In this document: positions 1 through 11,861 of the stretch, one piece after another | How the letters are laid out: each line of letters begins with the position of its first letter | Position numbering within the stretch: the first letter of the stretch is position 1 | Source of the DNA: a virus | Lineage: Duplodnaviria; Heunggongvirae; Uroviricota; Caudoviricetes | Length of the DNA: 18,616 nt | Virus record (IMG/VR): IMGVR_UViG_2711768037_000018 | Location: 1-18,616 of that record | Direction: 5' to 3' (one strand) | Translations under genes and position numbers: made by a program | The notes under the pieces: model-generated | Told to the model about the DNA's origin: nothing | What the model saw: the letters and a program-made list of their open reading frames with translations, nothing else | The model's database searches: none

Positions 1-540
1 ATTGGTGAGTCCGGGGATTACGGTTTGCCCGTGCTGTTCAAGGCGTTCAATTCTCGCCAGTAGCTGAGGCTTCTTAATTTTTCCCCAGCGATTAAGCAGG
101 CGGCCTGACATGCTGGCAACATCCTTCTCTTTCATGTACTCCAGCATTACGGCATTTCTCTCTTCTTCAAATTGACGATGACCAACCTGAAGCATGGCGT
201 ACATCCAGTTGAATGCGTTGATGTAAGCAATTTTGATACGCATTGCTTCTTTTTTGGTGTAGGACATAACCAAAAGCATCAACCCATCCTTGCGGAGACG
301 GTAGAATTTTTGCGGCTTACCATTCTGTAACTCATTGTTTTTATAGCAAAGCTCAAAGTTGAGCTTTGTATCAAACTCAGGAGGGCAAGCTTCTATGGTT
401 CGTTCAATGTCACGAACCACGTTCTTCGGCAGCTTTCCAAATGCTTTTGCCACCATAAAAGAATCTGTAACCGGATCGTTGTTTGCTACAAAAATTAGGT
501 CTCTGAAATCTATATCGTTAACAACGGTTGGGTAGTTCAT
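1..540 (-). CDS. Rha-family phage regulatory protein, partial (ATG at 538-540; C-terminus lies beyond window start)
   Basis: Minus-strand ORF open to position 1; translation begins MNYPTVVNDIDFRDLIFVANNDPVTDSFMVAKAFGKLPKNVVRDIERTIE, a Phage_pRha-like motif resembling the N-terminus of the 4021-4743 protein. Not in the ORF track because it is truncated by the window edge. Confidence 0.65.
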   Translation of the reverse strand, partial: MNYPTVVNDIDFRDLIFVANNDPVTDSFMVAKAFGKLPKNVVRDIERTIEACPPEFDTKLNFELCYKNNELQNGKPQKFYRLRKDGLMLLVMSYTKKEAMRIKIAYINAFNWMYAMLQVGHRQFEEERNAVMLEYMKEKDVASMSGRLLNRWGKIKKPQLLARIERLEQHGQTVIPGLTN

Positions 541-685: not shown

Positions 686-711
686 ATAAAAAAGCCCCGC
701 GAATGCGAGGC
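686..711 (-). terminator. Rho-independent terminator downstream of Rz
   Basis: On minus strand: GCCUCGC-AUUC-GCGGGGC stem-loop (one G-U pair) followed by UUUUUU. Confidence 0.5.
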
Positions 712-885
712 TAAATCCTGGTATTTGTAATGACTGGCTCTTATCTCAACGCAGCCCCTTACCGCGCGCCAGATGCTCAATATCAAGCATCAGCAATGAG
801 ATGTTTAATCTGGATTCACTCCAGAAGTGATCACCACCCTGTCTACAGAGCCAGATGTGAAGGATGATGAGTAAAATTATCGCTA

Positions 886-2566: not shown

Positions 2567-3190
2567 CTAACGTGTGACCGTATTCAAAATGCTGTCTGCG
2601 ATTGACTCTTCTTTGTGGCATTGCACCACCAGAGCGTCATACAGCGGCTTAACAGTGCGTGACCAGGTGGGTTGGGTAAGATTTGGGATTAGCATCGTCA
2701 CAGCGCGATATGCGGCGCTTGCTGGCATCCTTGAATAGCCGACACCTTTGCATCTTCCGCATTCTTTCTCAACAACTCTCCCCCACTGCTCTGTTTTTGC
2801 TATATCAACCGCACGGCCTGTACCGTGACAATCTCTGCATCTTGCGCCAGGCGTCGCGGCACTACGGCAATAATCCGCATAAGCGAATGTTGCGAGCACT
2901 TGCAGTACCTTTGCCTTAGTATTTCCTTCAAGCTTTGCCACACCACGGTATTTCCCCGATACCTTGTGTGCAAATTGCATCAGATAGTTGATAGCTTTTT
3001 GTTTGTCATTCTGGCTGAGTTCGTGCTTGCCGCAGAATGCAGCCATACCGAATCCGGCTTGTGATTGCGCCATCCCCATAGCAGCCATCACATCAGTACC
3101 GGAAAGAGAGTCAGAAGCCGTGGCCCGTGGTGAGTCGCTCATCATCGGGCTTTTTGGCGAATGAAATTTAGCTACGCTTTCGAGTCTCAT
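2567..3190 (-). CDS. Q: Late gene antiterminator Q
   Basis: 207 aa MRLESVAKFHSPKSPMMSDSPRATASDSL..., near-identical to lambda Q as recalled, including the Cys-rich zinc-binding region. Confidence 0.95.
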   Translation of the reverse strand: MRLESVAKFHSPKSPMMSDSPRATASDSLSGTDVMAAMGMAQSQAGFGMAAFCGKHELSQNDKQKAINYLMQFAHKVSGKYRGVAKLEGNTKAKVLQVLATFAYADYCRSAATPGARCRDCHGTGRAVDIAKTEQWGRVVEKECGRCKGVGYSRMPASAAYRAVTMLIPNLTQPTWSRTVKPLYDALVVQCHKEESIADSILNTVTR

Positions 3191-3375
3191 CGTCTTCCCC
3201 TCTTGCCCTGTTTGACCATCAGGACGCCGTTAACTATTACATGACGCTCGCCTTTGCTGTCTCGGTTGTACTTGAGCACTGTTCCTCTTGCGCAGGAAAG
3301 CATCCTCGCCACTTCGGTCTGATTGCCTCGTGTCTGGATAAGAAGCTCTGGTATCGTTTGAATTGTGGCGTTCAT
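3187..3375 (-). CDS. ninH: NinH-like small DNA-binding protein
   Basis: 62 aa; NQTEVAR-L-C-RGTV-KY ... H-IVN-VLMV pattern matches lambda NinH; ATGA start/stop overlap with rusA and Q. Confidence 0.75.
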   Translation of the reverse strand: MNATIQTIPELLIQTRGNQTEVARMLSCARGTVLKYNRDSKGERHVIVNGVLMVKQGKRGRR

Positions 3376-3734
3376 GCGTTCTCCAGTTCGGTGATTTTTA
3401 TTCCAAGCCGTCCGCCTGGTACTTTCACACCACGAATTACGCGAATGTCATCGAATTGCTCGTCGTCTTCCGCAAATCCGGCATGGATAAGGGAGTCGAG
3501 TAAACCCTTCAGGATGTTATCTAGGTCGCGGCGGCGGGAGTCTGGAACGTCTGCGATTACTTTGATGCGGAGTCGTGATTTGGTGAAAATATCTAACTTG
3601 AGTTGGTGGATGATTTGCTGAACGTCTTTTCGGTATTTCTGGCCTTTATCGCTGATGTAGTATTGGCTTCCCCGTCTTCGCCAGTAGGTATTCACCGACG
3701 GCGGGTATGGAAGCACAAACTGATATTCGTTCAT
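3372..3734 (-). CDS. rusA: Holliday junction resolvase RusA
   Basis: 120 aa; LPYPPSVN..., RRRDLDN and AGF..DD motifs characteristic of the RusA family. Confidence 0.9.
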   Translation of the reverse strand: MNEYQFVLPYPPSVNTYWRRRGSQYYISDKGQKYRKDVQQIIHQLKLDIFTKSRLRIKVIADVPDSRRRDLDNILKGLLDSLIHAGFAEDDEQFDDIRVIRGVKVPGGRLGIKITELENA

Positions 3735-4021
3735 GACTTAATCTTCCCCTCCTTCAGCAGTATCGCCTGCGTCCTGATCACGCCTTCGAGGTGGTAAAGT
3801 CTGGCGTCTTTGTTGTCGAGGTTATGGGTGCGTCGGTCGATCTCCGCGTGGCAGTCACTACAAGCCCATGCGCCGATCAGGTCGTCAGGCTTCATTCCCG
3901 TTCCGCAAATTCCAGCCATCCGGTAATGTGCCAGAACTGTAGTTTCAGGATTGCCATTGCATACGCCGTAAATACGTACCTGGCATTCTCTGTTGCGCGC
4001 TTCTTTGCGCAGGTTAGCCAT
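3731..4021 (-). CDS. ybcO: YbcO-like DUF1364 protein (predicted metal-binding nuclease)
   Basis: 96 aa MANLRKEARNRECQVRIYGVCNGNPETTVLAH...CSDCHAEIDRR; resembles E. coli DLP12 YbcO, which also sits directly upstream of rusA. Confidence 0.8.
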   Translation of the reverse strand: MANLRKEARNRECQVRIYGVCNGNPETTVLAHYRMAGICGTGMKPDDLIGAWACSDCHAEIDRRTHNLDNKDARLYHLEGVIRTQAILLKEGKIKS

Positions 4022-4743
4022 TAAGCAGCCTCCCCTGTTACTTTCAGCATTCCGTTATCGAGCAGCTTTCTGGTCAGCCACTGTTGACCACGCCCGGTGA
4101 TTTTTGTGGTGAACGATATCTGTATTCCGTGATTTGTGTTGACTGCTGTTTCTTTCACTGTGAAATAGCCGCGATCCATATATTCCTGCATTGGCACATT
4201 GCGCCGGGAACCTGAAGCAATAAGGATTTTGTGATCGCGCATCCACGCAAACAGTTTGTTTGGACCAATTCCAACAACCTTTGCAAAGTTTCCAATCAAA
4301 ATTCCACTGGCCTCGCCAACGCGATCGGCAAACTCAACTTTAGGTGCGGCAATTGCGAGCTGGTTTTCCAGTTGCATTTTCTGCTCAGCAAGGTCAGCAG
4401 CAAGGCGCAACGCTTCTGGTAGCGTTTTTGGGATATTAACCGCAGATTCTTCAAGCTCTCGCCAACGGTCAACAAGGCGAGCGGTGAATTCCGGCGACAA
4501 CTGGGCAACAACGACAATACTGTCTCGCTTACCTTGTTCGCCTTCGAAGACGTAATGCTCGTACTGAACATTGAACCCTAAGTTATTGATTCTTCCGGAA
4601 ACCTCAATTTGAGGAAGCCGGATAACACCATTTTTAGCCAGCGTTTCGATGGTACGTTTCACATTGTCATGACGCTTACCAACCAACTCAGCAATTTCAA
4701 TGCTTGTCATTTTGATGGCATTGCCATTCATTAACTCATTCAT
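4021..4743 (-). CDS. Phage antirepressor-like protein (N-terminal Rha domain + C-terminal KilAC/ANT domain)
   Basis: 240 aa; N-terminus MTSIEIAELVGKRHDNVKRTIETL (Rha signature); C-terminal region ...NFAKVVGIGPNKLFAWMRDHKILIASG... typical of KilAC domain. Occupies the position of ninG in lambda. Confidence 0.85.
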   Translation of the reverse strand: MNELMNGNAIKMTSIEIAELVGKRHDNVKRTIETLAKNGVIRLPQIEVSGRINNLGFNVQYEHYVFEGEQGKRDSIVVVAQLSPEFTARLVDRWRELEESAVNIPKTLPEALRLAADLAEQKMQLENQLAIAAPKVEFADRVGEASGILIGNFAKVVGIGPNKLFAWMRDHKILIASGSRRNVPMQEYMDRGYFTVKETAVNTNHGIQISFTTKITGRGQQWLTRKLLDNGMLKVTGEAA

Positions 4744-4906
4744 CGTCTTCTTCCTCGTACATTGAGCTATTCGGATCGCTCATCAGTTCTGCGCAGCAGT
4801 GCTCACACACGTGAACTTCCAGCACATGCAGCTTCTGACCGCAGTTAGCGCACGTTAAAGCTCGCTCGACGCTTTCTTGTTCGTAACTTCGATTTGGGTC
4901 AATCAC
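4736..4906 (-). CDS. ninF: NinF-like small Cys-rich protein (GTG start; alternative ATG at 4928-4930)
   Basis: C-terminal portion of the 153-aa track [59 protein letters not shown] matches lambda NinF; GTG preceded by GAGGAA; GTGA overlap with ninE stop. Confidence 0.75.
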   Translation of the reverse strand: MIDPNRSYEQESVERALTCANCGQKLHVLEVHVCEHCCAELMSDPNSSMYEEEDDE

Positions 4907-5079
4907 CTTGTTTTCCTCATGCGGTTCCATTTGGCCTGTAACAGCCCGTAGACATAATCGAATGTCTTTACCTGGCTTTCTGTGGGGATTGGTTTCTTGC
5001 GGGATCTGGTGCGTTTGGTAGGAGTAAAAATCAGGTTGTCTAACGCTATTTGAGTAATGCTTCGTCGCTGTATCGCCAC
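4903..5079 (-). CDS. ninE: NinE-like protein (58 aa, putative GTG start; not in ORF track)
   Basis: Hand translation of minus strand gives (V)[57 protein letters not shown], similar to lambda NinE (..RRQRRSIT..LPTKRTRNKPKPIP..VKTF..ARKTR); GGAGGA precedes the GTG with a short spacer. Confidence 0.55.
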
Positions 5080-5656: not shown

Positions 5657-5732
5657 GACTTCCCTCTCCCCCAAATAAAAAGGCCTGCGATTACCAGCAG
5701 GCCTGTTATTAGCTCAGTGATGTAGATGGTCA

Positions 5733-7169
5733 TCAGAATCCTCCTTTCTTCTTGGACTGCGGTTCCTCACGTTCACGGCGGCGCATTTCAGCAGACTGTT
5801 GGTCTGTGTCATAAATAGCGCCATTTGCCTGAATGCAATACACCGTGCCGGTATTGCCATGACGATTGAGGCGAAGGATTAGTTCGGTTTCACCAGGAGG
5901 AACGCTGTCATCAAAAGCACCTTCACGATGGATCCCCACCCAATAATCGCAATCCTGTTCAATCTGCCCTGTATCTCGTGAGTCACTTGGTAATGGGCGT
6001 TTATTGGTTCGGCTTTCCAGTGCGCGGTTAAGCTGTGTCAGAAGCACAACAACGCAATCAAGCTCTTTGGCAAGGTTCTTCAGTCCTTTGGTGATCATGC
6101 CGTAAGCAAGGTCGTTGCGATCGGCCTTTTCAGCGGTCATTAGTGTCAGGTAATCGACCAGAATCATGCCAACACATCCTTTTTCTCGCTTGATTCGACG
6201 GCTTTCGCTGACGATTTGAGCCAGAGATAATCCCGGCGTGTCGTCGATGTAAAGCAGGTCGATTTCACTCAAGCGATTGGCTGTTTCGATCGCCCTGTTG
6301 AAGTCACCATCGTAATCACCCTGATAGCCGTCATCAGCGTCATTTGTCGCCGGAAGGTAAAAAATATTCGGGTTAACACCTGACTTCTGTCCTACCAGTT
6401 TTTCCAGTATCTGGTCACCTGGCATTTCAAGGCTGAACATCAGAGCGGGCTTTTTCTCATGCACTGCGCAGTTGATTGCCATCTGGCTGTATAGGGTTGT
6501 CTTGCCCATCTTAGGGCGAGCGCCAATGACAAACAGAGAGCCTTTCACCAGGCCTTTCGGTGACAGCATCCTGTCCAGCGATGGGATCCCTGTGCTCATT
6601 CCTCGTTGTTCGCCTGACGGGTCAAATCGCTTCTCAAGGTCGCTAACCCAGTCTTCCATGACCTCACCAAATGAGCGAAGGCCGCGACGCGATCCGGTTT
6701 TTGCATGGTCTGTCAGTTGCGTGAAAATCGCCTGAATAGCTTCGTACTTCTGCGTTGCAGTCATTCCGTTGCGGGAATAGAGCAATTCCGTCGCTTCAGT
6801 CATGCGGTTGATGGCGTAGCGTTCCATTGCGGTTTCACGAACCTGCATTGCATAGGCAACGATGTTTGCTGCGCTTGGCGTGTTCTTTGCGATCTCAGCG
6901 ATATAAGCAAAACCTCCAACAGACGCCGTTAACGATTTGCGCTCCAGTTCATCGAAAAGCGTCAGCCCATCTACTGGCTTTTGCTCCCGGTGCATTCTGG
7001 TTATTTCTTCGAAAAGGATTTTGTGTGGTCGGCTGTAAAATGAATCAGGCTTCAGCATCGCCAGAACTTTCCGGACGCGCTCACTGCTGTCATCATCCAG
7101 AAGCAATCCACCAATCACCGCCTGCTCTGCCTCGATGCTATGGGGCGGCGCATAAAAATTATCGGTCAT
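5733..7169 (-). CDS. Replicative DNA helicase, DnaB family (P22 gene 12-like)
   Basis: About 478 aa from ATG 7167-7169; Walker A GARPKMGKTT, DnaB-like N-terminal domain (SIEAEQAVIGGLL) and RecA-like core; the track start at 7184 is a GTG extension. Confidence 0.9.
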   Translation of the reverse strand: MTDNFYAPPHSIEAEQAVIGGLLLDDDSSERVRKVLAMLKPDSFYSRPHKILFEEITRMHREQKPVDGLTLFDELERKSLTASVGGFAYIAEIAKNTPSAANIVAYAMQVRETAMERYAINRMTEATELLYSRNGMTATQKYEAIQAIFTQLTDHAKTGSRRGLRSFGEVMEDWVSDLEKRFDPSGEQRGMSTGIPSLDRMLSPKGLVKGSLFVIGARPKMGKTTLYSQMAINCAVHEKKPALMFSLEMPGDQILEKLVGQKSGVNPNIFYLPATNDADDGYQGDYDGDFNRAIETANRLSEIDLLYIDDTPGLSLAQIVSESRRIKREKGCVGMILVDYLTLMTAEKADRNDLAYGMITKGLKNLAKELDCVVVLLTQLNRALESRTNKRPLPSDSRDTGQIEQDCDYWVGIHREGAFDDSVPPGETELILRLNRHGNTGTVYCIQANGAIYDTDQQSAEMRRREREEPQSKKKGGF

Positions 7170-9703: not shown

Positions 9704-10000
9704 ATGGAATTTCTGATAGTTTTTGTTGTTGTTTTGGTCATCATTCTTTTTGTTTTGCTAAGCATTAGCAAAAAGCTATCTCAAATGATTGAACATAGCT
9801 CTAATCGCGCAAAAGAAGAAGAGCATCTAATTGATATAAAAGAGATTCTCTCTGATATAAAAATCACATTAGATGAAATAAAATACACAACAGATCTAAT
9901 TGAACAGTATAAAATACCAACCCCAAACGAGAGAAAAGCAATAGATCAATATCGTATTGACTTAGAAATCGACGAAATGCTAAGCAAAAGAAAAGACTAA
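9704..10000 (+). CDS. Hypothetical single-pass membrane protein (98 aa), AT-rich, co-oriented directly downstream of cI
   Basis: N-terminal TM helix EFLIVFVVVLVIILFVLLSI then charged helical region; GGAGGG SD; strongly AT-rich codon usage compared with neighbours; followed by an intrinsic terminator. Confidence 0.7.
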   Translation: MEFLIVFVVVLVIILFVLLSISKKLSQMIEHSSNRAKEEEHLIDIKEILSDIKITLDEIKYTTDLIEQYKIPTPNERKAIDQYRIDLEIDEMLSKRKD

Positions 10001-10996: not shown

Positions 10997-11467
10997 ATGA
11001 CAATATCATGGAGCGTACCTTTTCCTGAATCAGAAACTGAACATGATGGAATGCCTGTTTTCTGGAGATTCCAGGCGACAGTTGAAGAAGATGGAATCAA
11101 AATATTCGCACTTCAATATATAGCTTTTCATCAGACAGAGCATTATGCATGGTTGGTTCCTGCGCATTGGATTGTTAATTTTAAACCAGCACCAAATCAG
11201 TGGTTACAGGAATGGAAACAAAAGAGAAATAGATATGCAATTAAGAAAGTAGCAAAAAATGCAGAAAGATCTTTTGCATTCCCAACGAAGAAACTTGCCA
11301 TTGAAAGTTTATTGCGCCGGAAGAAATACCATTTAATGAGAATCAAACAAGATTTGGCTGTTGTATCAACTCTTGTTGATGGGATGAAGAATATTGATAC
11401 ATCAACACCAGATATTGAATATAACTTTGGACACAACCAAGAAACAGAAAACTGGGTGTTTTATTAG
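10997..11467 (+). CDS. Hypothetical protein (156 aa), AT-rich
   Basis: Clean ORF with GAGGTGAG SD; AT-rich composition; no recognised motif; occupies the ral/sieB position between N and cIII. Confidence 0.65.
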   Translation: MTISWSVPFPESETEHDGMPVFWRFQATVEEDGIKIFALQYIAFHQTEHYAWLVPAHWIVNFKPAPNQWLQEWKQKRNRYAIKKVAKNAERSFAFPTKKLAIESLLRRKKYHLMRIKQDLAVVSTLVDGMKNIDTSTPDIEYNFGHNQETENWVFY

Positions 11468-11612: not shown

Positions 11613-11861
11613 ATGATAAAAACTGATTATCCTGCAGAACTTAAACAAAAAGTAATAACAGCAATTAAATGCTCTTTTATCTCATGTCGTACAGATGAAG
11701 AACGACATGTCGTTGAGTGTGCAATTGTCGAGTTTCTCACAGCGATGGAATTTACCGCTGCAGAATCAATAGATGTATTAAAGCAATCAGACGGAAATGA
11801 TATTGAAACGGATGATGTTATTGACCGACTAATAAAATCATTCGAAGAAGAAATAGAGTAG
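11613..11861 (+). CDS. Hypothetical small acidic protein (82 aa)
   Basis: GGAG SD; about 20 Asp/Glu versus 8 Lys/Arg; followed by a GC-rich hairpin (about 11862-11885). Confidence 0.6.
   Translation: MIKTDYPAELKQKVITAIKCSFISCRTDEERHVVECAIVEFLTAMEFTAAESIDVLKQSDGNDIETDDVIDRLIKSFEEEIE

Follow-up and report, generated by a model that had tools for sequence, protein, structure and literature searches.

The gene roi lies at positions 4021–4743, on the minus strand, of an 18,616-nucleotide (nt) stretch of DNA from a tailed phage (IMG/VR record IMGVR_UViG_2711768037_000018; the whole stretch is referred to here as the window), and a second gene of the same family, rha, occupies positions 1–540 of the same strand. 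The pair is ordinary, widespread and already named. The one unexpected feature to emerge from our analysis is that in roi, and in its relatives in many phages, a conserved mirror-image DNA site is embedded in the coding sequence of the gene itself, in the part that encodes the putative DNA-reading head of the protein. In roi this site adjoins a match to the consensus for integration host factor (IHF).

Homology identifies the gene at 4021–4743 as roi, which is already known from the nin region of lambdoid and P22-like phages. It is an ATG-to-TAA open reading frame whose 240-amino-acid (aa) product shows 88% identity with HK022 Roi (240/241 aa aligned, E = 3e-158); the two do not differ from aa 102 onwards. 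With CUS-3 Roi the identity is 98%, and with RefSeq WP_053265256.1 of E. coli JKHS016 it is 100%. PHROG 63, which is labelled ‘anti-repressor Ant’, takes in the whole protein (E = 7e-99). An earlier note on this DNA, made from its letters, had placed a 240-aa reading frame with a Rha and a KilAC domain at these positions and proposed a domain search as the check, and Pfam supports both assignments: Phage_pRha (PF09669) matches aa 12–99 (4447–4710, minus strand) with 35.1 bits against a gathering cut-off of 29.9, and ANT/KilAC (PF03374) matches aa 126–228 (4060–4368, minus strand) with 113.5 bits against a cut-off of 25.3 (E = 8e-33). Database homologues at E ≤ 1e-5 number more than 7,000, with 2,355 and 1,265 members in two of the 90%-identity clusters; there are 550 relatives in IMG/VR, and the nin segment is matched in 2,362 of 5,426 complete E. 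coli genomes. Papers that cite roi attribute to it a DNA-binding protein with an effect on lytic growth when IHF is mutated.

Alignment of roi alleles from close homologues divides the protein into a variable head and a constant remainder. Residues 22–65 (4549–4680, minus strand) form a hypervariable cassette that occurs in at least nine types, while aa 1–21 and 66–240 stay 85–100% identical and the KilAC domain is nearly invariant. An AlphaFold2 model was built from 34 close homologues, and its N-terminal domain alone is usable: the mean predicted local distance difference test score (pLDDT) of the whole model is 46.6, with block means of ~68–86 over residues 11–70 and values below 60 by residue 80. 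The elements of this domain are a strand (11–13), two helices (14–21 and 25–37) and a beta-hairpin (45–52/58–67), in the manner of a winged helix. Because of this predicted order, the variable cassette would comprise the recognition helix and the wing, the parts expected to read DNA. A Foldseek search of the PDB with this poor model gave no match at E ≤ 0.001, and a PDB sequence search with Roi likewise gave no match.

The DNA that encodes residues 41–50 contains a 14+1+14 imperfect palindrome, TCCGGCTTCCTCAA-A-TTGAGGTTTCCGGA (gene nt 122–150; 4594–4622, reading on both strands), which we regard as a candidate Roi operator. It is complementary at 11 of its 14 positions and is the best palindrome with 14-nt arms in the gene. 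In cassette type C and in the 933W-type D, the sequence is other than that of the window (type A), and the best palindrome stands in exactly the same register. DNA of types E, F, G, H and I was then fetched to test the prediction that follows from this, and in each case a palindrome centred on nt 136 was found, with 10–11 of 14 positions complementary and with differing sequences. In the alignment of nine alleles, 77% of cells pair, compared with 58% when columns are shuffled (none of 500 shuffles reached the observed value). It can also be seen that the change is compensatory: across the nine cassette types 12 of the 14 pairs are altered on both sides, and sliding the register by 1–3 columns leaves 27–52% of cells paired.

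A perfect match to the IHF consensus, AATCAATAACTTA (gene nt 153–165; 4579–4591, minus strand), lies 17 nt downstream. The pattern WATCAANNNNTTR has only two matches in the 18.6 kb of the window, of which this is one. In HK022 roi the consensus stands at the same offset, with no other match in 10 kb, and seven of the nine cassette types retain it. In an abstract of 1996 Clerget and Boccard reportedly described Roi as binding a site in its own gene near an IHF site; IHF is said to stabilise the binding, and mutants that grow on IHF-deficient hosts are said to have a Roi of lower affinity. The layout of palindrome and IHF consensus seen here agrees with that description.

A palindrome of the same kind is present in rha, a perfect 10+2+10 one, CAAAGCTCAA-CT-TTGAGCTTTG (gene nt 173–194; 347–368, both strands). 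Its position in the aligned proteins is equivalent to that of the roi palindrome, just past the recognition helix, and synonymous resampling gives it a P of ~0.003–0.005. The motif CTCAA-N1-2-TTGAG has just two occurrences in the 18.6 kb, one in each of the two genes, and no further copies of either palindrome that might serve as target operators were found in the window. The rha of a Stx2a-converting phage retains the palindrome through a compensatory change (CGCAA/TTGCG). P22 rha has a weaker palindrome, followed, as in roi, by the IHF consensus AATCAATAACTTA (nt 260–272 of the annotated coding sequence), which encodes EKINNLG. This peptide and its IHF motif are common to P22 rha and roi though the proteins otherwise share the Rha domain alone, and both genes have IHF-related phenotypes.

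We extended the comparison to more distant members of the Rha family. We picked 14 members by hand, from phages of Bordetella, Pseudomonas, Paenibacillus, Bacillus, Vibrio, Acinetobacter, Paraburkholderia and Salmonella, and in 11 of them the palindrome 14–23 residues past the helix anchor is the strongest that the gene contains. An independent sample was drawn from IMG/VR solely by a DNA pattern for the GKRHDNV...I helix and reduced to 41 representatives of less than 70% identity. Here the strongest palindrome falls within the segment 14–25 aa past the recognition helix in 28 of the 41 genes, where 5.1 would be expected at uniform position (binomial P = 1e-16), and resampling of codons with the protein sequence kept gives a combined Fisher P of 3e-20 over the same sample. 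The core common to the family is CCT[C/G/T]AA-N1-2-TT[G/C/A]AGG, encoding P-Q-I-E or L-N/K-F-E/Q, and its flanks vary, with perfect symmetry over 14+1+14 nt in places. No second copy of 17 strong sites from other Rha genes was found in the 1–14 kb of DNA that flanks them. These results raise the possibility, which we hold tentatively and at somewhat less than even odds, that Rha-family genes of Gram-negative and Gram-positive phages carry the binding site of their own product in the DNA that encodes the wing, so that head and site would constitute one exchangeable module, represented in roi by at least nine cassette types in which the two change together. If so, each phage would have a private pair of Roi and site on the road to the late-gene activator Q.

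The explanation that best accommodates these observations is that roi is transcribed with the nin genes from the early rightward promoter, N antitermination providing the read-through, and encodes a two-part DNA-binding protein with a variable N-terminal Rha winged helix and a nearly invariant C-terminal KilAC domain. Roi would bind, probably as a dimer, to the palindrome in its own coding sequence, and IHF would bind to the adjoining consensus and bend the DNA, resulting in a Roi–IHF nucleoprotein complex within the early rightward unit, ~1.4 kb upstream of Q. Such a complex may limit roi expression, hinder transcription towards Q, or both; when IHF is absent this balance would break down and stop lytic growth, in line with the published phenotype. 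Since the reading head is encoded by the very DNA that holds the site, protein and site would move together, and recombination would transfer the specificity of Roi along with its site and allow the cassettes to diversify. Taken as a whole, with the identity of roi included, we consider this explanation quite probable; on the narrower proposal that the palindrome is a self-encoded operator, we would put the chances at roughly even.

Several observations weigh against this explanation. The HK022 allele (type B), the sole one studied experimentally, has the weakest palindrome, with 8 of 14 positions complementary around an inner CTGCA-T-TGCAG, although it still stands above synonymous resampling of its protein sequence (P = 0.001). 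The HK022 Roi site mapped in the 1996 work may lie elsewhere than in this palindrome. Two of the nine cassette types are without the IHF consensus. The KilAC half of the AlphaFold2 model, with pLDDT below 50, is unusable. Finally, in most alleles the palindrome would fold stably as RNA, at −2.9 to −19.5 kcal/mol and with z-scores as low as −5.7, which would suit a hairpin in the nin transcript acting in mRNA stability, RNase III processing or a translational pause while the wing folds. Such a hairpin would also be in keeping with the covariation, which keeps the pairing while the sequence changes, and with alleles C and G, which have a common recognition helix and different outer arms, each of them self-complementary. 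However, positions that depart from Watson–Crick pairing show no excess of G·U on the sense strand (13 G·U, 22 A·C and 33 other), and 23 of 32 palindromes have spacers of 0–2 nt, where the innermost complementary bases could not pair in RNA. The sequence core CCTNAA..TTNAGG is moreover conserved along with the RHDNV start of the recognition helix, the HK022 element folds with −2.9 kcal/mol only, and Rfam has no match to the palindrome element. Because the G·U excess is absent, the spacers are short, the core is conserved and Rfam is silent, we favour a double-stranded DNA site for a symmetric dimer and consider an RNA hairpin an unlikely explanation.

Two further readings concern the protein rather than the site. 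The earlier note had suggested anti-repression or cross-regulation of co-resident prophages, and in its strict form this would make Roi a true antirepressor, whose KilAC domain binds and inactivates the CI-type repressor of its own or a co-resident prophage. KilAC/ANT is indeed named after phage antirepressors, as PHROG 63 is labelled; some relatives have an Ant-like gene or another Rha gene immediately before roi, and in Stx phages ant is next to it. Yet one and the same Roi accompanies unrelated repressors, and one repressor can be found with or without roi: between the window and CUS-3 the Roi proteins are 98% identical, but identity of the cI proteins is 38%, over a 68-aa helix-turn-helix stretch, and the cro proteins are likewise unrelated, and E. 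coli MS20674 has the cI of the window (99%) with an unrelated 89-aa gene at the roi slot. The KilAC half is invariant across phages of different immunity, and these comparisons indicate that roi reassorts independently of the immunity region and is not co-inherited with a repressor type. A consensus scan found no promoter-like site upstream of roi, whose start codon is within ninF and behind a tR2-like terminator; Roi would therefore be made only after repression has already been lifted, and the scan gives no sign of expression independent of derepression. PADLOC and the NCBIfam antirepressor models gave no match, and the papers citing roi speak of a DNA-binding protein. We conclude that the ‘antirepressor’ label comes only from the name of the KilAC domain, that it should not be taken as a function, and that anti-repression is unsupported for roi and rha alike; that Roi acts as an antirepressor strikes us as very improbable, though it may interact with some conserved partner.

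Only marginally better placed, and still improbable in our estimation, is the reading in which Roi and Rha are exclusion or abortive-infection-type functions, directed against other phages or against their own phage in unsuitable hosts, with the internal site incidental. Both genes were discovered as inhibitors of phage growth in IHF-deficient hosts, and both lie in mosaic, ‘moron-like’ slots, which in relatives are filled by other accessory genes. Against this, the PADLOC defence models do not match, roi is embedded in and co-expressed with lytic genes and is not expressed from the prophage state, and the position of the palindrome across the family is hard to call incidental.

Among known systems, HK022 Roi, also annotated in HK97, HK620 and CUS-3, is a full-length homologue with Rha and KilAC domains, the slot ninF-roi-hkbD-rusA-ninH-Q and the same IHF consensus offset; it differs in that aa 22–65 of the window Roi belong to another cassette type, and the palindrome of the window has another sequence and is stronger (11/14 vs 8/14). 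P22 Rha (orf201) resembles Roi in its Rha domain only. The C-terminal domain of Roi matches PF03374, as in antirepressors of the P1 Ant type, whereas, in contrast to these and to P22 Ant, its N-terminus is a Rha winged helix and its gene lies outside an immI-like module, with no promoter-like site of its own and no linkage to a repressor type. A likeness in logic may be found in autoregulators and centromere-binding proteins that have their site within their own gene, such as parS within parB: the cis site is embedded in the coding sequence of the presumed binder, and the two are inherited as one unit. These have no homology to the Rha family, for which binding to the internal site is proposed here.

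The genes roi and rha were described between 1985 and 1996 and have been without a mechanism since. A conserved palindrome within the gene, co-varying with the variable head and standing beside an IHF site, provides a concrete hypothesis that is cheap to pursue, namely self-binding, with autoregulation or a roadblock upstream of Q. This may hold for the Rha family at large; its members are annotated in thousands of phage genomes, among them those of Shiga-toxin phages, where the timing of Q controls toxin release. To our knowledge no self-encoded palindrome of this kind has been described beyond HK022 Roi; our literature search, which was limited in coverage and is not proof of novelty, found nothing relevant on Roi or Rha binding sites.

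The neighbourhood of roi is that of a conventional nin region. The minus-strand order is ninB, ninD, ninE, ninF, roi, ybcO, rusA, ninH, Q, and the slot given by the earlier note, between ninF and ybcO, is borne out. ninF (4736–4930, minus strand) is identified by Pfam (NinF) and by the annotation of an E. coli locus that is 99.3% identical, and ybcO, also called hkbD (DUF1364; 3731–4021, minus strand), by Pfam (YbcO, E = 4e-42). Downstream lie the Holliday-junction resolvase gene rusA (3372–3734, minus strand; Pfam RusA), the functional counterpart of lambda/P22 ninG, and the Q antiterminator gene (2567–3190, minus strand; Pfam Antiterm, E = 1e-57), in a common transcription unit with roi. The terminator scan places the tR2-like terminator at 5681–5704 (minus strand), upstream of ninB at the start of the nin region, and a scan also picks out a promoter-like site and terminator (2524–2434) after Q. 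The view that roi belongs to a delayed-early nin operon is reasonable, as the gene lies between the tR2-like terminator (5704–5681) and Q and overlaps its neighbours. The end of ninF overlaps the start of roi by 8 nt (ATGAATGA), with GAGGA 8 nt before the roi ATG, the roi stop and ybcO start share 1 nt (TAATG), and the next three downstream junctions overlap by 4 nt each; these tight stop/start overlaps suggest that roi is translationally coupled to its nin neighbours. We also considered whether roi might be an insertion of foreign DNA, and its composition is ordinary (GC 0.44–0.50 vs 0.47–0.54 in the flanks).

The same slot is occupied by roi in HK022, HK97, mEpX2, HK542 and CUS-3. Among 80 IMG/VR loci with this roi allele, the order ninF-roi-ybcO-rusA is found in 74 and ninF-roi-ninG in four, and roi stands directly before ninG in another cassette type as well (locus L097). 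The idea that roi replaces ninG is not upheld by these arrangements. P22 has the order ninF-ninG-ninY-ninH-ninZ-23, which puts roi-ybcO-rusA at the place of P22 ninG; judging from these gene orders, it is ybcO-rusA that takes turns with ninG as a block, and roi forms a module of its own after ninF. This roi slot is mosaic: in the nearly identical prophage of E. coli MS20674 the unrelated 89-aa gene spans 6820–7089 of the locus. Immediately before roi, some relatives carry an Ant-like gene (ORF6N/P22_AR_C) or a further small gene with a Rha domain (L095, 746–1426; L099, 1076–1504), and in two 304-aa database proteins (P0001 and P0002) a Rha-like head of this upstream kind is fused to a complete Roi.

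By its alignment and position the second gene is the counterpart of P22 rha. That a Rha-domain gene lies downstream of Rz (886–1353), as the earlier note held, is confirmed by Pfam, with 77.1 bits for Phage_pRha and 91.2 bits for ORF11CD3; TIGR02681 matches rha and not roi. The gene had been called truncated, and this was not the case: its 180 codons (1–540, minus strand) end at the last residue of P22 Rha (...PGLTN), to which it is 56% identical over 180 aa, with the alignment running to the last residue of both proteins, and the coding sequence is 543 bp (180 aa) in relatives, namely Sf101 and E. coli MS20674, whose match to the window begins immediately past the annotated stop codon. Because P22 Rha aligns end to end and the coding sequence of the relatives is 543 bp, rha is complete, only its stop codon falling just past the edge of the window. 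The gene is 100% identical to that after Rz in CUS-3, and the P22 gene map has rha at the same position, after Rz/Rz1.

Window rha shares with P22 and phi80 Rha the Rha plus ORF11CD3 architecture and the place after Rz/Rz1 and before the packaging genes. It differs from P22 Rha in its N-terminal head, which has diverged while the C-terminal 60 aa are ~95% identical, and in its palindrome, a perfect 10+2+10 where P22 has the weaker one with the IHF consensus. P22 rha is described as a late-operon gene that harms lytic growth when IHF is lacking. Between Rz and rha the terminator scan located a terminator-like GC hairpin with a T-run (693–712, minus strand), and rha expression would therefore depend on Q-modified read-through, which fits the P22 description. 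Two Rha-type genes in one phage are a common arrangement and no peculiarity: roi and rha occur together in CUS-3 and in a Stx2a-converting phage (roi 81% and rha 63% identical, with rha directly after Rz). The rha slot is mosaic too, holding a GIY-YIG nuclease gene in JKHS016 (2398–2883 of the locus) and a gene for a KilA-N protein (hkbK) in HK620.

The window covers the regulatory half of a P22-type prophage that resembles CUS-3 (Lederbergvirus). The minus strand carries cro, cII, O-like and DnaB-like replication genes, the nin region, Q, holin, lysozyme, Rz and rha, and the plus strand carries cI, N, an anti-restriction gene, RecT and ea-type genes. No integrase gene was found in the 18.6-kb window. 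A match to the CUS-3 attR core, GATTTGCAGGTTCGATTCC (16603–16621), marks the end of the prophage and is read as a partial tRNA 3′ fragment, apparently of argW type; ARAGORN detected no tRNA. Beyond it lies a torI-like excisionase gene (16640–16840), read as part of a second, decayed element, followed by the host sucrose transporter gene cscB (17369–18616). Between cI and the recombination genes, an interval that in lambdoid phages often holds exclusion or host-takeover genes, two plus-strand reading frames (9704–10000, PHROG 18389; 10997–11467, PHROG 1636) encode conserved phage proteins without assigned function, and an anti-restriction homologue is found at 11613–11861.

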